From: Dictyostelium discoideum
Lineage: Eukaryota
Length of the DNA: 64,000 nt
Assembly (NCBI GenBank): GCA_000004695.1
Contig: CM000153.2
Location: 5,056,001-5,120,000 of the forward strand
Reading direction: 5' to 3'
In this document: positions 5,049 through 51,567 of the stretch, one piece after another
Numbering within the stretch: position 1 is the first letter of the stretch
Layout: every line of letters starts with the position of its first letter
Position numbers and translations under genes: made by a program
The notes under the pieces: generated by a model
Databases searched by the model: none
What the model was told of the DNA's origin: nothing
Seen by the model: only the letters and a program-made list of their open reading frames with translations

Positions 5049-6551
5049 ATGATTAAAAAGGTAAAATTGTTTTTATTAGTATTAGTATTATTTAATTTTT
5101 GTGTTTCACCATCATTATCATCATCATCAAGTGAATGTCAACAAACAGTTTATAGTGTTTCAGAAGTTAGTCCATATGTTCTTGGTAGTTTAGTTGTTAT
5201 TAAAGGTATTTTTTGTTTAAATAGTACAAATGGAGTATCAGTTGTATTGAACGTACCAGAAGAACATTCAAATATTGTATATGGCTTGAATTGTAATGAT
5301 TTAACAATTGATTCAATTGGTGAAACAATTACATGTAGATTATCAGACATCTATCAAAGTCAAAATAATAATGCAAACTTTTCATCATTAACAACTGTAG
5401 CAATTTATACACCAATCCCAGTACCAACACCAACACCATCACCAACACCATCACCATCACCACCATCAAAAATTGGTGTTGGTCCAGTACCAGTATTGGG
5501 AATTTCAAATTATATATTTACAAATAGTAGTTGTCCACAAAATTGTGAAATAAATGGATTTTGTGATGTTGCAAGTACTTGTAGATGTAATGAGGGTTAT
5601 GCATCATTTGATTGTAGTGTTAAAGTTTATAATGAATCTTCATTACCATCACCAAGTGTTGGTGATGATTTTGATACATTTTCAATGAGTACATCAAATG
5701 AAGATTTCTCAATAAGATTATCACATGTTTTGGCTAACCTTGAATTTCAAACTCAATTATCAACTTTATCGGTAAATAATAAGTCATCAAATAGTAATGG
5801 ATTATCGTATACCCTAAATGGAACCATTGGTAGTGATGGTCAAGCAACCCTATCACCATGGTTAAATCAGTTATATTATAATGTAGATTTCAATATAAAT
5901 GATGATGATGAGGATAACGAACCATCGTTTAAATTCTCCAATTATAAGGGTGCATATTTACCATTATCATCCTCTGCTGCCACAATTACAATTAATCCCA
6001 CTATAGACCCACAATATTTGCCATCGGGTTTTTCACATTATCATGGTTTTGGTGAATTTTATATGATATTTGAAATTTCGAATAAACATCTCACAATGAG
6101 TAAATATTTGAGTGCTACACCATTTATTGCAAGAAGTGTTACATTGTGGAGTGAAGAAAATGTAAATTCGATGATGGAAATTAGTTTATCCGATATTTAT
6201 AGTTTTGATGGATCAACTGTACCTGAACATGCTTATCTTAATGTATTCAATTCATTTGATTATCAATTTATAAAAAACTATTCAAATAGTTCTTTATATG
6301 TTGCTATTATCATTCCACAAACGTCATCCTATAATCCAATTCCAATGGGTACATATACAATTCAATTAAATATCAATGTCTATGATATTCGTTTATCAAT
6401 TTCAAAAGGTAGATTCCCACCTTGGTTTATCGCTTTAATTGTCATCATTCCATCAATCATTGGAATAGCTATCATAGCAATAATTATTAAATGTGTTTTA
6501 TCAAAACGTAATAGTTATTCAAGAATAGGAGATCACCCTCTTCACCATTAG
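5049..6551 (+). CDS. Type I membrane glycoprotein with a signal peptide, a Pro/Thr/Ser-rich linker, an EGF-like Cys module and a C-terminal transmembrane helix.
   Basis: Intact 500-aa ORF starting at an ATG. The N-terminal signal is MIKKVKLFLLVLVLFNFCVSPS. The linker is PIPVPTPTPSPTPSPSPPS. The EGF-like module is CPQNCEINGFCDVASTCRCNEGYASFDC. The hydrophobic segment FIALIVIIPSIIGIAIIAIII is followed by a basic stop-transfer motif, KCVLSKR. Confidence 0.6.
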   Translation: MIKKVKLFLLVLVLFNFCVSPSLSSSSSECQQTVYSVSEVSPYVLGSLVVIKGIFCLNSTNGVSVVLNVPEEHSNIVYGLNCNDLTIDSIGETITCRLSDIYQSQNNNANFSSLTTVAIYTPIPVPTPTPSPTPSPSPPSKIGVGPVPVLGISNYIFTNSSCPQNCEINGFCDVASTCRCNEGYASFDCSVKVYNESSLPSPSVGDDFDTFSMSTSNEDFSIRLSHVLANLEFQTQLSTLSVNNKSSNSNGLSYTLNGTIGSDGQATLSPWLNQLYYNVDFNINDDDEDNEPSFKFSNYKGAYLPLSSSAATITINPTIDPQYLPSGFSHYHGFGEFYMIFEISNKHLTMSKYLSATPFIARSVTLWSEENVNSMMEISLSDIYSFDGSTVPEHAYLNVFNSFDYQFIKNYSNSSLYVAIIIPQTSSYNPIPMGTYTIQLNINVYDIRLSISKGRFPPWFIALIVIIPSIIGIAIIAIIIKCVLSKRNSYSRIGDHPLHH

Positions 6552-7511: not shown

Positions 7512-10500
7512 ATGTATTCAGGATTATGGACTAAAAATGGAGAACAAATACTTCCATCATTTATATCGATCAATGCCAAAGTTGTAGATTTGGCAGCACA
7601 AATCGTCTTTACCAAGACCTATTCAGACATTAACAAGTATTTCGCCACAATGAACAAAATGAACAGTAGCAACGAAGAGGATGCAACCTTTAAAGCATTT
7701 TTAAATACATCCATGGGTGTATTATGTGGTTTCGAAATCAATCTCGATGGTAAGAAGATCACATCCCAAGTCGTTAGTCAAGCCGATGCAATGAGATTGT
7801 TTGAAAAGAATCAAATCAGTACTGCCGATGATATCGTCAAGGAAGCCGAGTTCAACAATTCCGATCCACACATTGAAGAGGATTTCTTTCTCTGTAAAGT
7901 TAATAACCTCTCTCAATATAAGGAGCTAGAAATTATTATCACTTACTCCACTGAAATGTCAACCCAAGGTGACTATCTTTTTATGGAATTCCCAACTTCT
8001 CTAACTACAATTAGATCAAGTCAATTCTTTGAAACTTTAGATAATGAAAATAGTACAACAAATACAAATACACAAACTCAACCACAATCTGTAAATACAA
8101 CCACCACAACAACACCATCAACAACCACAGCCACAAATATAACAAATATAAATAATAATATACAAAATATAGGATCATCAACAACAGGTGGTTTAACACA
8201 TTCAACATCATCTAATAAATTATCATTATCATCATCATCAATTCAAGTTAATCAAAAACAAGGTTTATTGATTGAGATGAATTTAGATATGCCATCAAAA
8301 ATCTCCGAAATTATTTCACCATCACATTCAGGTTTGATTGATGTCGAGTACAAAGGAGAGACTGGTAAGGTAACATATAAAGATTCACGTTCTATCGATG
8401 TCGTTAATCAATCTGATTTGGTTGTATTGATTAAATTGGATAACCCACATGAACCATATGGTTTCATTGAAGAGAATGAAAATGGTAGCCGTGCTCTTAT
8501 GATTGCTTTCTATCCTCAATTATCCTCTGCCGCTATTGCCGCCTCTGCCACTACACCTGTCGTTGAAAGTGAATTAATCTTTTTAGTTGATGTCTCAGAG
8601 TCAATGGAAGGTTATAATATGAAACATGCAAAGAAAGCACTCCATCGTTTCCTTCATTCCCTTTCAAAGGATACCTATTTCAATATCATTAGTTTTGCTT
8701 CATCTCATCGTAAATTGTTTGCTCAATCTGTCAAATACAATGATGAAAACCTTAAAGCTGCCACTGCCTACGTAGAATCACTCAAAGCCATTAGCCATGG
8801 TGAAACTAATCTCTTGGAGCCATTAAAAGATATCTACTCTGTTGATGCAACTTGTCCAAGAAAAATATTCCTCTTAACTGATGGTCGTGTTAATAATATT
8901 GGTCCAATCGTTGATTTAGTTCGTCAAAATGCTCATAATACTTCAGTTTTCCCAATTGGTATGGGTGAATTCGTTTCACGTCAACTTGTAAGTTTTTTTT
9001 TTTTTTTTTTTTCGTTTTTTTTTTTTTTTTCTCTCTCTTCTTTTATTCTCTTTTTATAAAAAAAATATCTTTTGTGAACTTGGACAAAAATAATTAACAT
9101 CTCGGTTTTTTTTTTTTTTTTTTTTTTTTTTTCTTTTTTCTCTCTCTTCTTTTATTCTCTTTTTATAAAAAAAAATAGGTTGAATATATTGCAAATGCAG
9201 GATCAGGTGTTGCAGAATTAGTAATTGAAAATGAAACCATTGAAAGTAAAGTTATGCGTCAATTAAAGAGAGCATTACAACCAGCAATGTCAAATATTAA
9301 AGTTGATTGGGGATCATTATCAAGTAAGAGTCAAGCACCAAGAGATTTACGTACATTGTTTTTCGGTGATCGTTTAACTATTTATAACATTCTTGGAAAA
9401 GATGAAAAGATCGATGGTACTACCGTTAAATTAATTGCAAATGGTCCAACCGGTCCAGTATCTTTCCCAGTTACCATAAAGAGTGAAGAGACTAAAAAGG
9501 GTAATCTCGTTCATAGTTTAGCTGCCTATACATTAATTCAAGATCTTCAAGATCAAATCTATGAAAATAATTTAGTTGATCCAAAGGATATTGATCCAAT
9601 TCGTCAAAAAATCATTGATCTTGGTATTAAATATGGTTTAGCTTCAAATTATACTTCTTTTTGCTCTGTTGAACAACCTGATCAATTTAATGAATTATTA
9701 AATAACAATAAACAATCAGAACAAGCACAAGAAACAACAACCACCACCACCACCGCAACCACAGTTGATGATAATGTAGTTATTGAAGAGAATAAACAAC
9801 CAGAACCAATTGTAGAGGAACAACCACCAGTTTTAAATGGCAATATTAATTTACAAAATTTAACAATCAATCATGATGGTAAATCAAATGATAATGGTTT
9901 GTTCAAATCAAACGATAGACTTAAAACTCATCATCAAGGTGAAAGCGCTATGATTTCATTGAGAGGTTCTGCTAGTGGTATCCCAACTACTTTATCTGGT
10001 AGTGGTATTCCATTCTATAATCCATCTTCACCAAATCATGATCGTAATATCAATACTACTCAACAACCAACACCAACACAATCTACTCCATTAAAAACAC
10101 CATTAAAAACTCCACTCACTCCATTATCAAAATCTGGTCTTAAAGTTAGTTCACCAGAATTTGTACCAAAAAATACATTAAGTGCTAAAGCTGCTCCATT
10201 TGTTCCATCACCAAATAAATTACCAACTACAACAACTTCAGCTCCAGCAACAACTCCAATTACAACCCCAGCCCCAACTACTACTACTACTGAAGTTAAA
10301 CCAACTGTTGCAGAACCAGTTAAACCAGTTGTTGCAGAACCAACTAAACCAGTCGTCGCAGAACCAACTATACCAGCTGTCGCAGAACCAATTAAACCAG
10401 TTGTTACAGAACCAACAAAACCAGTTGTTGAAGAACCAGCAAAACCAGCTGTTAAACCAACACTTTTTGAAATGATTAAAATTGCTGAAGCTAAAGCTGC

Positions 10501-11227
10501 CGCTGAACAAAAAGCTGCTGCTGAACAAAAAGCAATCGCTGATGCAAAAGCTGCCGCTGAACAAGCTGCCAAACCTGTAGAACCAGCTGTTGTCCAACAA
10601 CAACAACCACAACAAACCAAACCAAAAGCTGATAAACAATCAAAACAAAATGCAAAGGATAATAAACAATCAAATAAACCAGTTGTTGTCGAACAAAAAC
10701 CACCAGTTGTAACTGAAACTAAACCAACTGTTGCCACTGAATCAGCTACACCAACTAAACCAACCTTTGCTCAAGCTGCTGCCGCTGCTGCTGCTGCTGC
10801 ACAACAAGCTGCACAACAAGCTGCTGCAACAACTCCAGTCAAACAACAACCAACTAAACAAACTACACCAAATAAATCAACACCAGCTGTTGAAACTAAA
10901 TCAGTTGTTGCTGAAACCAAACCAGCAGTTGAACAACCAAAACCAGTTGAAACCAAACCAGTAGTTGAACAACCAAAACCAGTTGAAACTAAACCAGTAG
11001 AACAAACAAAACCAGTTGAAACTAAACCAGTTGAAGTTAAACCAACAGTCGAACAACCAAAACCAGTCGAAGTTAAACCAACAGTTGAACAACCAAAACC
11101 AATTGAAACTAAACCAACAGTAAATTCAATTGCATCAACACTTGCTAATTTTGGATTCCAAACCAATGAACCAGCTAAACAAGCAACACCAACTCCAGCT
11201 CCAACTCCAGTACAATCAAATGAATCT

Positions 11228-11269
<42 letters not shown>

Positions 11270-13942
11270 AACAACAACAACAACAACAACAACAATATTG
11301 TTTCCTCAACACCAATTAAAAAACCAGCAGTTACAAATATTTTACCAACTCAAGCAGTTATTTTATCATCAGGAGGACGTCGTGTTTACAATAATGATTT
11401 CTTATTATCATTTAAAGATTCAAATACTAAAGCACCAGATTCATTAAAAACCACACCAATCTTTTCAAATGGGCCACAAGGTATTAGCCCATCATCTGGA
11501 AATGGTTCAAACAAATCCCACTTTGGTAAGAAGAGAGGTGATCGTGGTGGTAGAGGTGGTAGAGATCGTAATGCCGATGCTGAACCATCAACTCCAATCA
11601 TTGTTAAGAAAGTTTTCTCTCAAGATGTTCAAGGTACTCATCAAGAATTATTAAAGAAATTCAAATTCAATCTTAATAGAATTACAATGGATACCTATAG
11701 TTCATTGATTAAAAATATCGATGAATTAAAAGTACCAGATGAAGAAGCACTCAAATCAATCTCAAAGATTCTCTTTGAGAAAGCAATTATTGATCAAAAA
11801 TATTCAGCCGTTTATGCAATTCTTGCAGGTCATTTAGATACAACTTTCCCAAAGTTTGCCGAACTTTCACTCAAACGTGCCATTCTCGATAATTGTCAAA
11901 CTGAATTTAGTGCCGTTGTTGATAAATCCAAATTTGAAGGTTTAAGTAAAGAAGATCTCGAAGAACAAGAATTCATCATAAAGAGAAGAGTTTTAGGTAA
12001 CATTAAATTCATTGGTGAGCTCTATAAACATGGTGTTCTCGGTGAAAAAGTTGCAAAAGCTATCGTTGTTCAATTGATCACCAAATGTGAAGAGAGATTA
12101 GACGAAGAATCCATTGAACCATTGGTTAAGATTCTCAACACTATTGGTAAGAAACTTGATGAAGTCGATAAGGCCAACACTGATTTATACTTTTCCAAAG
12201 TAACCAACATCTCAAATAATCCAGTAGTTACCTCTAGAGGTCGTTTCATTTTATTGGATCTTATTGATTTAAGAGCAAATAAATGGCAACCAAAGAATTC
12301 CACCCAAACAAAAACCAAAAAAGACGAATCAGACAAAGAAGAACGTTTCATTGCTAAACATGGTGGTCCACAAAAGAGAGAAAATGATTCACGTAGAGAT
12401 GGCGGTAGAGACTCAAGAGGTGATGATCGTAGAGGTGGCGGTGGTAGAGATTCAAGAGGTGATGATCGTAGAGGAGGTAGAGATTCAAGAGATGCACCAA
12501 GAAGTGCATTTGGTGGAAAGAGTAGTAAAGATGGTTGGGAGACCGTTGGAGCAAAGGGAGGTAATAATAGAGATAAAGGTGGACGTGGTGGTGATCGTAG
12601 CGGCGGCAAACAATCTCCAAGTGGTAAGAAAGATTCAGGTTTTGGTCCATCGTCAGGTGGTTCAAGCTTATTTGGTAGTAGAAGAGGTGATGATCGTAGA
12701 GATGGTGGTGGTAATTCATCACCATATCGTCCAGGTCAAGGATTTGGTAGAAAGGATGATCAATCATCATCAATTCCATCAATTCCAAATAGATCCAATG
12801 CATTCAGTGCTTTAGAGGATGATGATTATCAACCATCAACATCACCACAACCACCATCAGTATTTGGTAATCGTTCCAACGATAGAGACTCTCGTGGTCC
12901 ATCAAAACCAGATAATCGTAAACAACCAGCTCAACCACCAGCCCCAGTTGAACCAGTTAAACCAAAGATTAACTTTGAAAAGATTGAAGATGATATTTCA
13001 ATGACTTTGGATGAATATGCTGAAACCCAAGATATCGATGAAGCCATCGAATGTATAAAAGAAATTAACGAACCAACCGTTTTGGGTAAACAATTCAACA
13101 TTTTCATCATGAAATCATTGGAGAGAAAAGAAAAAGAGAAACAATTGATCATCGAATTGTTCAGTGGTATCTTAACAGCCCAATTATTCAATGCCGAGCA
13201 AATCAAAGAAGGCCTCAAAGAAATCATTGATACCATTGAAGATATTGAAATAGATCTTCCATTCTCTGGTGTATTCGTTGCAACAATCGTGGGTATTTGT
13301 ATAGAATCTGAAATATTCCCATTGAATTATTTAGAGGAAGCATACGCTCATTTGGTTGATAGTGATAAAGCTGAAGAGATGATTGTAAATACATTTAATT
13401 CCATCGTCAAAGTCTCTGATAAAGATCGTTTAGTCGAAATCTATGAAAATACCAAAGGTCTTGATATCTTGAAGTTATTCGCTCTCAAGAATAGAAAAGT
13501 TGCCTACTTGGAAGAATTCTATCAAACTCATTTCCCATACCTCTCTCATGAAAAAGCTGTCGAAGGTAGTAATGAATCAGCTTTGAATGAACAACCAGAT
13601 CTCATCGAACATCTCTTATTGTTACAATCTGCTGATGGTTATTGGCAATTGGATAAGAAATTGGCTGGTATTTTAGGTATCTCTTTAAATATTTTAGAAG
13701 AAGTCGATTCTAGTGACAGTTGTGTTATCACTACACACCCAGAGGTTTGGGCAACTTGTTTAGCTATTACCTTTGTCAATTTAAATAATGTATCTGATCC
13801 AGATGATGAAGATGATTTGGAATTAGTACTCAGTAAAAGTCATAAATGGTTGGCTTCTCAATATCAATCTGATAAACCACCAAAACAATCTCAAGATGAT
13901 GTTTTATTAAAAGCTAAAAGATTATTAAGTGAAGTTTTATAA
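7512..13942 (+). CDS. Large protein joining an N-terminal VIT plus VWA module (VWA5A/PARP4-like) to an eIF4G-like core, which has an eIF4E-binding motif, a MIF4G domain, an RGG/RGD-rich segment and an MA3 domain. It ends in a VWA5A-type C-terminal tail. Exons are 7512..8987 and 9179..13942.
   Basis: Exon 1 carries the VWA MIDAS-type motif LIFLVDVSESMEG and LLTDGRVNN. It ends ...SRQL at a GTAAGT donor. A tttataaaaaaaaatag acceptor joins it in frame to exon 2 (VEYIANAGSG...). Exon 2 is a 1,588-codon stretch with no stops. It contains RRVYNNDFLLSF, which matches the eIF4E-binding motif KRYDREFLLGF of human eIF4G. It contains ...IIKRRVLGNIKFIGELYKHGVLGEKV..., which matches the RRRSLGNIKFIGELFK signature of MIF4G. 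It has an MA3-like region (DEYAETQDIDEAIECIKEINEP...) and ends ...LLLLQSADGYWQLDKKLAGILGI.... Confidence 0.7.
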
Positions 13943-18483: not shown

Positions 18484-20486
18484 ATGGAAAAAATAACATA
18501 TGATTGGTTAAAAGAAGATACAATTCTTTTAGAATCAGTATTAATTTTATCATTAAGTGGTTATTATATATCAAAAAATGAAATTAATAAAATTTGCAAA
18601 GAGTATGTTTTTTAAAAATAATAAATTAAAAAAAAAAAAAAAAAAAAAATGTTTATTAAAAAAATTATTTTAGTGATTTAGAAAAGCATGAAAGATTAAA
18701 TGAAGAACAATTTAAAATGTTAAAAGAAAAGAATATTATTTTGCAAAATAAAAATGACAATAATGAAATAAAATTGGAATGTTTAAAAAAAGAATTTAAT
18801 AAAATCAATTGTTCATTTTATTTAATTATTGAAAATAATAATAAGATCAATAAAAATAATAATATTAATAATAGTAATGATGATAAATATAATAATATAA
18901 TTGACTCCACTAAAACAATAAAATTATTAAAAAATAAAAAATCAAAGAAATTAAGGTCAGAATTATTTAGAAAAGTTTGGAAAAACATTGTTATAAAGAA
19001 TCAAATTTTATTAGAAGTTAGATTATACAATATTCATTATAATACAATAATGACTTTTTCAAATATATCATCATTACAAAGTTATAGATACAGAGGATAC
19101 TTGAATAAAATTATTATTGAAGATGAAGAAAAAAAAGAAATTATTGAACAAGGTATTATTCCTTGGGGAGTTGAAAAAATTGAATTTAAATTTAATCCAA
19201 TATTAAAAGAAAATTCAATACCAAATTCAGTTTGTCATTTAAAATTTGGTTATTCATTTAATAGACCATTTAATAGTAATATCATATCAGGTATTGAAAG
19301 TGATAATTGTAATTTAAAATCTTTAATATTTGGAAATAGTTTTAATCAACCATTAGAAACAACAACAACAACAACTACAAATGAAAACCAAAATAATAAA
19401 GAAAATAATGAAATTATTAATAATGATAAATGGTTATCAAAATTAAATAAACTTACAAATTTAGAATTTGGTGAATCATTTCAACAAGATATTAAAATTG
19501 GTCTATTACCAAATAGTTTAACATCTTTGGTATTATCAAAACATTATAATGGTATAATTGAAAATGGTGCATTAACAAATTCAATTTTAAATAATAACAA
19601 TTCAATTTTTAAATTTAAATTTGATTCAAATGGTAATAAGAATTCAATAATTGTTGATTATGTAAATTCAATTCCAAAGTATGTAACAACATTAGAATTT
19701 GATAATCAATTTAATCAAGTGATCCATAATGGTGATATTCCAAAGAATGTTAGATCAATTATTTTTGGTAAAGAATTTAATAGTTTTATTGAACCATTTT
19801 CAATAAATTCAAATGTAACATCGATTGAATTTGGATATAGATTTAATCAACCAATTATTGATAATCAATTACCCACTGAAAATTTAACAAATTTAACATT
19901 TGGTAATAATTTTAATCAAACCATTGAACCACATCAATTTTCAAAGAATTTGAAAAAATTAAAATATGGTTTAACTTTTAATAGAACCATTCAAGCTGGT
20001 TTATATTTTAATACTAGTTTAGAATCATTAAAATTCGGACCAAGATTCAATCAACAAATTCCATTGAAAACCTTACCAAATACATTGAAATATTTGGATC
20101 TATATGGTTGGACAGGACCAATTGTACCAGGTACTTTTCCACCATCATTAAAATCATTAAAATTAAATTATTTTAATCAACCATTACAAGTATCATCATT
20201 ACCATCATTGATTTCTTTGGAATTACTTGAAGATTTTAATCAACCAATTAATATAAATACAATTCCAACCTCTTTAAAATCATTAAAACTTGGTCGTAAT
20301 TATAGTCAAGACTTGACAAATTCCTTACCAGAGTCATTAACATCTTTAGATATTTCATCAACAAACTTGAAATTCAATATTGATTTATTACCAAATTTAA
20401 ATTCAATAATACTTTCAAATTATGATCATAATTTTTTAAATAATTTAGATTTTCAAATTTTTTCAAATTTAATTAAAATTAAATAA
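18484..20486 (+). CDS. FNIP-repeat-containing protein. Exons are about 18484..18607 and about 18674..20486.
   Basis: Exon 1 reads MEKITYDWLKEDTIL...ICK and ends at a GTATGT donor. A ...attattttag acceptor follows. Exon 2 has the usual N-terminal motif ELFRKVWKNIVIKNQILLEVRLYN and then at least ten FNIP repeats, for example FGYSFNRPF, FGNSFNQPL, FDNQFNQVIHNGDIPKNV, FGYRFNQPIIDNQLP, FGNNFNQTIEP and FGPRFNQQIP. Confidence 0.75.
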
Positions 20487-21666: not shown

Positions 21667-23750
21667 TTAGTCTTGTAAATTTGATTTTAATTTTTTAGAG
21701 GAATCTAAATCTTCAGATTCATTTGTATCAATTTCTTTTCTCTTCTTACTAATTGATGGTGTTGCAGATGAAGTAGTTGTGGATGATGGTTGGTCTTCAA
21801 TAAACATAAAACCATCATCCTCTTCAACATCATTATTATTATTATTATTTTTATTATTATTACTATTATTGTCAGATTCTGTAGTTGTTGTTGTGGTTGT
21901 TGTTGTTGTTGTTGTTTGAGAAGTTTTACCAATAATTTCAAAGAATTTATCATCTTCTTCTTTTTCAATTGTAGTAGTTTTACCTTCTTTTTGATCTTTT
22001 TCTTTTTGTTGTTGTTTTTTTAATTTTTTAGTATCTTCATCGAAATCTGTAGTATGTTGAATAGTGATTGTTATTTGAAAATCTTGATTATAATCCTCTA
22101 CAACAAGTGAGGTATCATTTGTTAAACGATGAGTTGCTAAAGTTTTCTTTTCGATTTTTGAACGTTGTTCAATCTCTTCTTTTGATAGATCTTGATCACC
22201 ACCTTCATAGATTATATCATTACCAACGGTTAGAATTGGTTCATTTACAGCCAAAGATTTCTTTAAAACATGATCAATGAATTGAGAGATTGTAGTTTTT
22301 TCAGTATTTAAACGACAAATGATGAAAGAACGATTACAAACAAAACATTTTGGATTTTGAGGTTCTAATTGAGTTGGCATTAGTAATCTCTTACCCGAGG
22401 GTAATTGATAGAGGTAAGTGGAAAGACATTGATCGAATCTACCATCGACCACTTTGATTGCCTCCATAACTATTAAACCACCAATTACAGCATTGGTAGT
22501 TGCAATTGCGGGTATAATATTGCCAGCCATTGATTTAACATCGAATCTACTCTTCATTGGTATACCAAATATCTTTGAACGAATATTCGAAGCGGAACAA
22601 ACAAAACTCAATGCCAATTCATCATCTTTATCCCATGTCATTGGCTTTGAGTTGGACTGATCGAATTGTTGTTTCAACTTTTCTAAACAATCTAAAAACA
22701 CCTCAACATTCTCTTTGAAAGTCCATTGTTTTTGGTCAGGTAATTTAAATATCAATTGATCACCTTCTTCCTCTGCTTGAGAGACCTCTTTTGAACTTAA
22801 AATCTCATCCAATTTCAATGAAGTTGGTGGTTGTTTATCTTTCCATAAATCGGGCATATGAATTAATGTTTCTATATCTGTATGAAATATCTTATGAAAT
22901 ACCCAACGTTTGAAACCCTTTTCCTTCTCTATCAATAATTGTTCATCCCTTTTAATATTACCCAATTCCTCAGTGCCATGAATTATATTATTGTCTAAAT
23001 CAGTCAACGATGATGAATCACCACCACCATCATCATCCTTTGGACCAAACAATTTACCAAATAACATTTTAGCCCAAACTATACAATGAATTGGTGCAGA
23101 TGGGTTAGTTCTAATTGTACAAACTGCAAATTGTTTTGGTACTGCAATTGGTTGACATTCGAAACATTCGGTTTTACCCTTTCTTATTACACTAACTTGT
23201 CCTAAATAACCTGCTGTACCACTCTCAATCATTGGTACATCCACTGATAAACATAATCTATTGACATGTCTACGTGCACTAATATTATCCAATGCATTCA
23301 TTACCAAATCAAACTGTTTAAAAAATTCACTACCAAATTCACTAGATTTAACATCACCATGATGTGCCGTTATATTCACTTGTTCATTATATTTCATTAC
23401 TGATTCTTTTGCTATCTTTGCTTTTGACATACCAATATGTTGTTTTCTAAATAAAAATTGTCTATTTAAATTACTAATATCAATTGTATCTAAATCAATC
23501 TAGAAAAAAATATATTATTAAAATTTATATTAATATTTAAAACAAATTAAATAATATATATATATATATATGTTTACTCATGAATAAACTTACTTACTAT
23601 ATCAATATTTTTAAAACCAGTTAATACTAAATTTTTTAATAATTCACAACCAATACCACCAGCACCAACAACTAATATTTTACATGTTTGAATTTTATCA
23701 AATGTTGATTGACCTAATGCTTGAATAATATGACTATATCTTTCACTCAT
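21667..23750 (-). CDS. uba2: SUMO-activating enzyme subunit 2 (UBA2/SAE2). Exons on the minus strand are 23598..23750 and 21667..23499.
   Basis: Exon 1 reads [51 protein letters not shown] and ends at a GTAAGTAAGT donor. This is a ThiF/MoeB Rossmann GxGxxG motif. Exon 2 reads [30 protein letters not shown]...[18 protein letters not shown], which carries the catalytic Cys and the conserved UBA2 motif. The C-terminus is acidic. The total is about 661 aa. Confidence 0.85.
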
Positions 23751-25039: not shown

Positions 25040-25962
25040 TTACATTCTAATGAAAACTGGTTTCAATTCACCTTGTCTCTTTTTTAATAAATTAACTAAT
25101 GATTGATCAATTTGTGGTGGAAGATTACTACTTTGTTCACCTGGAGGTATGTTATGGAGAAGGGTCATAATTTCTTTATCGATTTTAGAGATCTTTCTGA
25201 ATGGCCATTTTCTACCTCTTGCAGCTTCTTTCCATCTTTTACTCAAGGTTGAAGTTGGTATACCTAATTTCTTTGCAGCTTCACTTTGTGGGAAATTTAA
25301 ATATTCTGTAATCTCTATATAGGTTGGATTGGCTTCTGTTAATGATCTATTTTCTGTTGTAACTAATGCATTTGATGCTGATGGAACTGTATTTTGTCCT
25401 GTAATTGATGCTATAATATTTCCATTATTATTATTGTTATTATTATCACCACGTGGAGAACTTTCTTCATCATCACTACCATCACTATTATAATTATTAT
25501 TATTATTGTTGTTATTGAAATTATCGTTGTTATATCCATCATTCATATTATCATTATTATTATTATTATTATTACTATTATTATTATTATTACTATTACT
25601 ATTATTATTATTTCCATTATTATTACTATTATTACCATTATTATTGTTACCATTATTGTTATTGTTATTATTGTGGTGATTATTATTGCTATTATTACTA
25701 TTGTTATTATTCAAACTATTAGAATTTGAATCATTTGTTCTTAAAGTTATATTGGCGGGTGTTACTTCTCTGATATCAGGGTCAGATTCTCTATCATATG
25801 GTGTCGCAGCTGGTGCATTCATATAATGTTGTAAGTGTAAAGGGATTCTATCCTTTGTTAGTGACAATGGTCTACTATATGGTGAACCATGTGAAAAATG
25901 TGGATTGGTTGATGGACTATATACATGTGGTGATGAATTATTGCTGTTATTACTATTGTGAT

Positions 25963-25994
<32 letters not shown>

Positions 25995-26644
25995 CTATTA
26001 TTATTGTTATTATTATAATTATTGCTGTTATTATTGCTGCTATTATTATTATTATTACTATTATTATTATTATTACTATTACTATTATTATTATTATTGC
26101 TATTGTTATTGCCATTGCTATTGCTATTGCTATTGCTATTGCTATTGCTATTGCTATTGCTATTGCTATTGCTATTGCTATTGCTATTGCTATTGCTATT
26201 GCTATTGCTATTGCTATTGCTATTGCTATGGTTACTATTATTATTATTATTGCTATTGCTATGGTTATTATTATGGTTATTGTTGCCATGGTTGTTGTTA
26301 TTGTTACTATTATTGCTATTATTATGGTTGTGGTTATTATTGTTATTGTTGTTGTTGTTTCCATTGTTGTTACTGTTGCTGTTGTTGTTGTTGTTGTTGT
26401 TGTTGCTGCTGTTGTTGTTGTGGGTGGCACTCATTACATTTTGAGGTGATGGTAAATTGGGGGAACTATTACCTCCATTGCTATTAACATTTCCATTGGC
26501 ATTGTTGCTATTGTTGCTATTATTATTATTTACATTGCTGCTGTTATTGTTATTATTATGGTTTAAAATTGAATTTGCAGGAAAATCAAAATCTAATTGT
26601 GGATGGGTTGGTAATCTTGGTTGCTGACTTGAAAGATGTGACAT
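25040..26644 (-). CDS. RWP-RK domain protein, a putative transcription factor, with very long poly-Asn/Ser/His tracts.
   Basis: 534-aa ORF. The C-terminus reads ITEYLNFPQSEAAKKLGIPTSTLSKRWKEAARGRKWPFRK, which is the RWP-RK signature. Upstream there is low-complexity N/S/H-rich sequence, including a (GCTATT)n run coding an (NS)n tract. Confidence 0.7.

Positions 26645-35514: not shown

Positions 35515-51567
<16,053 letters not shown>

Follow-up and report, generated by a model that had tools for sequence, protein, structure and literature searches.

An eIF4G-family paralogue predicted in Dictyostelium discoideum, with its core set inside a VWA5A-type VIT-VWA frame

Introduction

eIF4G is the central scaffold of cap-dependent translation initiation, and the variation known for it consists mostly of paralogues that have lost or gained HEAT domains. 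In eIF4G1-type proteins (human EIF4G1, plant eIF4G) the MIF4G domain is preceded by a YxxxxL-Phi motif with a basic prefix and followed by an Arg/Gly-rich linker and an MA3 domain. A further HEAT domain, W2 (HEAT-3), is restricted to metazoan eIF4G1 and DAP5 and is lacking in the eIF4G of plants and yeast. Proteins of the VWA5A type (BCSC-1/LOH11CR2A) consist of a VIT domain, a VWA domain with a metal ion-dependent adhesion site (MIDAS), a post-VWA region and a C-terminal helical module marked by Q-x-x-[DN]-G-S-W...W-A-T, and the C-terminal half of PARP4 possesses VIT, VWA and MINT domains in the same order. Here we describe a gene (7512..13942, forward strand) in a window of 64,000 nucleotides (nt) from Dictyostelium discoideum AX4 (contig CM000153.2) in which these two plans occur together. 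Module homology and conservation show this single gene to encode a predicted eIF4G-family paralogue, whose core takes the place of the linker of approximately 100 amino acids (aa) found in VWA5A-type proteins. The exons and modules concerned are as follows, with positions counted within the window.

7512..8987, + strand: exon 1, codons 1-492, with the ATG at 7512
8988..9178, + strand: phase-0 intron of 191 nt, GTAAGT...ATAG, T-rich
9179..13942, + strand: exon 2, codons 493-2079 (1,587 codons) and TAA at 13940..13942, stop-free
7563..7946, + strand: VIT domain (aa 18-145), Pfam E 9.5e-5, 23 bits against a gathering score of 26.5
8571..9232, + strand: VWA domain (aa 354-510), split by the intron; Pfam VWA_3 at aa 354-505, E 1.4e-20, 74.4 bits
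9233..9682, + strand: conserved post-VWA region (aa 511-660), common to ordinary VIT-VWA proteins
11378..11413, + strand: eIF4E-binding-type motif RRVYNNDFLLSF (aa 1226-1237; Y1229, L1234, L1235)
11669..12283, + strand: MIF4G domain, HEAT-1 (aa 1323-1527), Pfam PF02854, E 1e-27, 97.6 bits against a gathering score of 30.8
12392..12769, + strand: RGG/RDG-rich linker (about aa 1564-1689), recognised from the sequence
12986..13315, + strand: MA3 domain, HEAT-2 (aa 1762-1871), Pfam PF02847, E 1.5e-14, 54.4 bits against a gathering score of 23.2
13586..13939, + strand: MINT-like C-terminal module (aa 1962-2079), six predicted helices, with Q-x-A-D-G-Y-W and W-A-T motifs

The core of this protein resembles the eIF4G1 type in the order of its parts and also in a conserved GWETV within the linker, the counterpart of which in human eIF4G1 is GWNTV; like plant eIF4G, it has no W2 domain. 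Unlike the eIF4G1-type proteins, it adds a VIT-VWA head of approximately 660 aa and the MINT-like module, carries PAM2-like motifs instead of a recognisable N-terminal segment binding the RNA-recognition motifs of poly(A)-binding protein (PABP), and coexists with a separately annotated eif4g (Q553R3). DAP5 (eIF4G2/NAT1) is likewise an eIF4G paralogue with MIF4G and MA3, and has a specialised role, but it lacks the eIF4E-binding motif, possesses W2 and is more distant in its MIF4G domain than eIF4G1 is.

With VWA5A, the protein shares a VIT domain (borderline here), MIDAS-bearing VWA, post-VWA region and C-terminal helical module in the same order, and four VWA5A-type proteins (P0018 and the environmental P0076, P0081, and P0087) match both its head and its tail. 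The difference lies in what precedes the tail, approximately 1,300 aa including the eIF4G core here as against approximately 100 aa there. With PARP4 it has the order of VIT, VWA and MINT-like modules in common. The D. discoideum protein has neither the BRCT nor the PARP catalytic domain, its loop corresponding to the contact with major vault protein (MVP) is not conserved, and the entry to which it probably corresponds (DDB_G0286969) was not enriched in proximity labelling of D. discoideum vaults, unlike separate PARPs of this organism.

Gene Model

The two exons encode a product of 2,079 aa ended by a single stop. Translation from the exon 1 ATG begins with MYSGLWTKNGEQILPSF, which agrees with the N-termini of all orthologues, and reading through the exon 1/intron junction (CAA CTT / GTAAGT) leads to immediate stops. 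The first-pass annotation of this DNA had proposed a single gene with one canonical phase-0 intron, and the continuous frame, the splice signals and the one stop uphold this. GC content is 0.27-0.46 over both exons, 0.24-0.26 in windows overlapping the intron, and 0.07-0.15 in the flanking spacers. No AT-rich, intergenic-like island was found by GC windows inside the coding sequence (7512..13942), and thus the VWA part and the eIF4G part are not separated by anything resembling an intergenic spacer.

The intron also holds an internal direct duplication comprising a long T-run and CTCTCTCTTCTTTTATTCTCTTTTTATAAAAAAAA in two copies. Copy 1 ends in ...AAATATC and copy 2 in ...AAATAG, the latter being the source of the 3' splice site.

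The eIF4G Core

The motif RRVYNNDFLLSF contains the sole match to Y....L[LMFIVW] in all 2,079 aa, carries a basic prefix and resembles KKQYDREFLLDF of human eIF4G1. It is kept in all seven dictyostelid orthologues, with one change of Y to W. Its position upstream of MIF4G is as had been described, but the distance is not, with approximately 95 aa separating it from the Pfam MIF4G envelope rather than the 70 or so residues given before. The MIF4G signature reported earlier was located as KRRVLGNIKFIGELYK at aa 1427-1442, in a domain scoring well above the gathering threshold. Among solved structures this domain is closest to human eIF4G1 (E 1.2e-32), followed by DAP5 (2e-20) and yeast eIF4G (1.4e-9).

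Downstream lie the Arg/Gly-rich stretch, previously noted as an RNA-binding-like RGG/RGD segment and found to be rich in RGG and RDG, and the MA3 domain, also predicted earlier and comfortably over its gathering score. Within the stretch KDGWETVG occupies aa 1609-1616, and its D/G-GWE-T/I core is kept in all orthologues.

The VIT-VWA Head

The VWA domain has an intact MIDAS (D360-x-S362-x-S364 at nt 8589..8603, T432, and D457), which is kept in the dictyostelid orthologues. The VIT domain is borderline in the D. discoideum product, although it reaches 33.8 bits in the orthologue P0007 and 49.9 bits in the distant relative P0133, and in alignment the VIT region is 62-86% conserved among orthologues. 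The proposal of a VIT-VWA N-terminus is retained, with VIT borderline in this product. Pfam had been expected to return VIT, VWA, MIF4G, and MA3 from one polypeptide; the last three were returned, with VIT passing its gathering score in P0007 and falling below it here.

The MINT-Like Tail

The C-terminus, where ADGYWQ occupies aa 1977-1982, is matched by no Pfam model. A profile was built from the last 112-118 residues of seven aligned proteins and searched exhaustively with HMMER against 1.84 billion representative proteins, giving 814 proteins at E <= 0.001. According to local profiles, among the best 150 of these 814 a VWA or post-VWA region is followed by the tail in 37, the full order VIT-VWA-MIF4G-MA3-tail is present in 8, and 5 are fragments with MA3-tail or MIF4G-MA3-tail. 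Three proteins of 764-911 aa (P0076, P0081, and P0087) are plain VIT-VWA proteins by Pfam, with the tail module at their end, and the hamster VWA5A-like protein P0018 ends in it as well. The spacing between post-VWA region and tail in such ordinary proteins is the short one given above. As the same head and the same tail module occur together in ordinary VIT-VWA proteins, the eIF4G core does lie inside a VWA5A-type frame, and the first-pass annotation was right to assign the tail to the VIT-VWA kind. Word-indexed searching gave almost no matches, whether the query was the MIF4G segment or the tail alignment.

A BLASTP comparison of the tail with a mollusc PARP4-like protein gave no match, and a narrow dictyostelid profile reached only E 0.055 as compared to 7e-6 for a broadened profile. 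A profile of 50 tail sequences finds human PARP4 (E 2.6e-5), the matched stretch being aa 1575-1648, within the MINT domain (aa 1562-1724) that docks PARP4 to MVP (PMC12280208). When folds were compared, the tail scored 11.8 with a Trypanosoma brucei flagellar doublet VWFA protein, 9.1 with lanosterol synthase, and 8.3 with the PARP4 MINT domain inside the vault (97 residues, 22% identity); Foldseek with the tail listed only the trypanosome protein. The predicted module thus looks MINT-like, with a fold similar to part of an alpha/alpha toroid.

The module also occurs in a group of large proteins (P0015, P0016, P0017, P0019, P0021, and P0022), with three to seven copies in each by local profiles and up to 12 matched stretches in the whole-library search. 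P0015 is from Scutellospora calospora and P0016 from Gigaspora margarita, both arbuscular mycorrhizal fungi, and Pfam finds C2 domains in the two multi-module proteins scanned, P0015 and P0021. Its repetition in C2-domain proteins of fungi shows the MINT-like module to be mobile and to extend beyond VIT-VWA proteins.

Orthologues and Wider Distribution

Searching with the whole protein retrieved seven dictyostelid orthologues of 1,679-2,188 aa, namely those of Polysphondylium violaceum, Cavenderia fasciculata, Acytostelium subglobosum, and Heterostelium album, two EukProt entries, and one JGI environmental sequence. VWA, MIF4G, and MA3 are present in every one of them and VIT is on record in five. 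In alignment the N- and C-termini coincide, and the domains are 52-86% conserved as against 14-40% for the linkers. The comparison with other dictyostelids suggested earlier thus showed the same architecture in all the orthologues retrieved. The annotation of D. purpureum offers only a MIF4G fragment of 234 aa (P0009).

At the P. violaceum genomic locus an intron lies at the same codon (RQL/V) as that of D. discoideum. Two JGI contigs of different sample origin share 77-87% DNA identity with this locus and carry the entire 1,838-aa open reading frame (ORF) of a P. violaceum relative with both introns missing and with short flanks, as spliced mRNA would look.

The second of these introns is short and lies near the MA3/tail region of P. 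violaceum (L004, about 5075..5155), and there is none at the corresponding site in D. discoideum. The EukProt model P0003 runs on (aa 1732-2188) into a downstream prenylcysteine-oxidase/amine-oxidase-like gene (PF07156, PF01593), an extension which is probably an annotation merge.

Beyond the dictyostelids, P0133 is an uninterrupted ORF of 1,454 aa on a 4.6-kbp JGI contig of 49% GC, with VIT, VWA, MIF4G, MA3, and the tail. It also carries KKTYTADFMQSL, and its identity to the dictyostelid proteins is only 26-31%. For five more fragments, in which the tail comes after MA3, the identity is 22-34%. The architecture is thus an old one that extends beyond the AT-rich social amoebae, and the earlier idea of an amoebozoan-specific regulator is unproven.

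Paralogy, Identity, and Expression

A survey of eIF4G homologues lists XP_643657.1 as the single one of D. discoideum, retrieved with yeast TIF4631 at E 7e-21 (PMC5862402 and its S3 Table). Mass spectrometry detected eif4g (Q553R3) with 22 unique peptides and C7G046/DDB_G0286969 with 28 (PMC13100048). As a separate eif4g (XP_643657.1/Q553R3) exists and is expressed, the gene described here is a paralogue; the alternative first put forward, that the eIF4G of this lineage bears a VIT-VWA head, is not supported.

The gene is probably DDB_G0286969, annotated as a VWA protein. This assignment comes from the name and from the tag of a neighbour, the adjoining ORF at 5049..6551 being identical to XP_637456.1 (DDB_G0286911). 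On that reading, D. discoideum expresses a second eIF4G-family protein which was not counted in the survey (PMC5862402). The exact 2,079-aa product was not present in the protein collection, and no protein search returned a D. discoideum match. The orthologues have precomputed Pfam matches to all the domains, so the architecture is visible in databases. Literature searches for DDB_G0286969, for Dictyostelium eIF4G with von Willebrand, and for MIF4G with VWA and VIT found no paper discussing the gene or the architecture.

The Linker and Neighbouring Genes

Between the head and the eIF4E-binding-type motif lies a long, poorly conserved, low-complexity linker (aa 660-1225), with the following features.

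9941..9988, + strand: motif ESAMISLRGSASGIPT (aa 747-762), from the orthologue alignment
10139..10210, + strand: two PAM2-like motifs, LKVSSPEFVPK (aa 813-823) and LSAKAAPFVPS (aa 826-836)
10297..10453, + strand: tandem repeat of a 24-nt unit, 6.5 copies, peptide KPVVAEPT
10912..11121, + strand: tandem repeat of 33/36-nt units, peptide VEQPKPVETKP and variants

The MISLRGSASGIPT core of ESAMISLRGSASGIPT is invariant in the seven dictyostelid orthologues, with only the first three residues varying (ESS, SSA, ENA). The motif is not present in P0133 and matches no recognised known motif. Both adjacent PAM2-like motifs are kept in the orthologues, and P0133 has LNANSAAFVP as their counterpart. PAM2 was the sole Pfam family matched in five of six linker segments, always with 8-16 bits and so short of the gathering score of 20. 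Such motifs are candidate ligands of the MLLE domain of PABP, and from their sequence PABP binding is plausible. The two peptide repeats described earlier are both true repeats at the DNA level.

Elsewhere in the window a giant HECT E3 ligase, which also has SPRY and PH domains, is encoded by a single ORF of 4,884 codons (36913..51567, +). Ordinary neighbours are genes for an FNIP-repeat protein (18717..20486, +), a SUMO/ubiquitin-like activating enzyme subunit with ThiF and UAE_UbL (21667..23430, -), and a protein with a weak RWP-RK match (25040..26644, -).

Discussion

The original observation is confirmed in every particular except the distance between motif and MIF4G. It had not included the MINT-like nature of the tail, the two PAM2-like motifs or the probable presence of the gene in databases as a VWA protein. 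As to function, we regard it as reasonably likely that the product is a scaffold for eIF4E and eIF4A tethered through its VWA and MINT-like modules. The core would bind eIF4E via Y1229, L1234, and L1235, as eIF4G cores do, and HEAT-1 together with HEAT-2 would bind eIF4A. The RGG stretch would bind RNA, with the PAM2-like motifs possibly binding PABP, and the MIDAS-competent VWA and the MINT-like module would dock the cap-binding assembly onto a protein partner or cellular structure. This would give a localised or specialised complex of the eIF4F type beside the conventional eif4g.

A number of points weigh against this proposal. We infer the contacts with eIF4E, eIF4A, and PABP from motifs and homology, and the PAM2 matches lie below the Pfam threshold. 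No eIF3-binding segment is recognisable in the product, nor did Pfam find a W2 domain in it at E up to 0.1, the C-terminus being held by the MINT-like module; as W2 is missing from plant and yeast eIF4G too, its absence does not bar membership of the eIF4G family. The link to DDB_G0286969 is indirect and not sequence-based, because the exact product is missing from the collection, and the intron-less JGI contigs could represent a genomic copy lacking introns instead of mRNA.

It might be argued that an adjacent VWA gene and eIF4G-like gene have been read as one, given that the linker is long, low in complexity and poorly conserved, and that D. purpureum is annotated with its MIF4G fragment only. 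However, a run of 1,587 codons free of stops and of any AT-rich spacer, the genome being about 22% GC, an extreme C-terminus belonging to the same family as the N-terminus, and one ORF kept in seven dictyostelid orthologues and the distant P0133 all speak for one gene. Of these seven, five come from annotated genomes or EukProt gene sets and two from environmental contigs. Together with these orthologues, the intron position shared with P. violaceum and the intron-less full-length JGI ORFs make mis-joined genes very unlikely, and of all the explanations considered this one has the least to recommend it. Rather more could be said for the protein being the principal cap-dependent eIF4G of dictyostelids, with Q553R3 as an accessory, yet we still think this unlikely. 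It has the eIF4E-binding-type motif, MIF4G, MA3, and possible PAM2-like PABP-binding motifs, its MIF4G is nearer to human eIF4G1 than to DAP5, and its peptide count is comparable to that of Q553R3. On the other hand, XP_643657.1 matches yeast TIF4631 better than the studied MIF4G matches yeast eIF4G (7e-21 as against 1.4e-9, although different databases were searched). Equally doubtful is a competitor or repressor which sequesters eIF4E and/or eIF4A in the manner of eIF4E-binding proteins (4E-BPs) or PDCD4, or a role in mRNA decay or storage. The eIF4E-binding-type motif beside an MA3 domain, the eIF4A-binding fold of PDCD4, would suit such a function, as would the lack of recognisable eIF3-binding and W2 regions and the presence of a canonical eif4g elsewhere in the genome. 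The complete series of HEAT-1, linker and HEAT-2, and a similarity that is specifically to eIF4G1, are nevertheless those of a productive scaffold, and factors that activate mRNA typically contain RGG and PAM2-like elements.

The frame itself raises the question of vaults. The VIT-VWA...MINT-like arrangement is that of PARP4, whose MINT domain binds MVP, so that the core may have been inserted into a vault-docking frame of the PARP4/VWA5A type; the tail would anchor the protein within the vault cage and capped mRNPs or 80S ribosomes would be brought into Dictyostelium vaults with it. In published work 84 of 999 D. discoideum vaults enclosed 80S ribosomes, the orientation of which was fixed, and there was enrichment of ribosomal proteins around MVPA. 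If true, docking would explain that fixed orientation and would give the vault a role in translation. We nonetheless consider this highly improbable, both as a matter of docking and as the delivery of mRNPs or ribosomes. In MVPA-TurboID data, DDB_G0286969 (to which the gene is assigned indirectly) is slightly depleted, with a log2 fold change of -0.34 (q 0.007), whereas the PARP Q54HY5 (+3.49) and the TEP1-like Q54CB5 (+1.61) are both enriched. The residues of PARP4 that contact MVP, S1614 and K1618, sit in a basic loop (PMC12280208). The equivalent loop here is acidic (net -5 as against +2 in human PARP4) and its predicted local distance difference test (pLDDT) score is low. Moreover, the module is shared by an axonemal protein of trypanosomes and by C2-domain proteins of fungi, and is therefore not vault-specific.

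We therefore return to the tethered scaffold in considering what the gene may mean. It is an eIF4G paralogue with an unprecedented frame and does not represent a new kind of system. For the families involved, the hitherto little-understood C-terminal module of VWA5A-type proteins gains a name and a fold, being MINT-like, and the published count of eIF4G homologues in D. discoideum would have missed one. A complete eIF4G core built into a MIDAS-VWA/MINT-like frame has been retained throughout Dictyostelia and also in eukaryotes further removed, and this conserved design implies selection for a physical coupling of cap-binding complexes to a docking module. As a haploid and genetically accessible amoeba, D. 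discoideum would offer a tractable system in which to study the localisation of translation factors.

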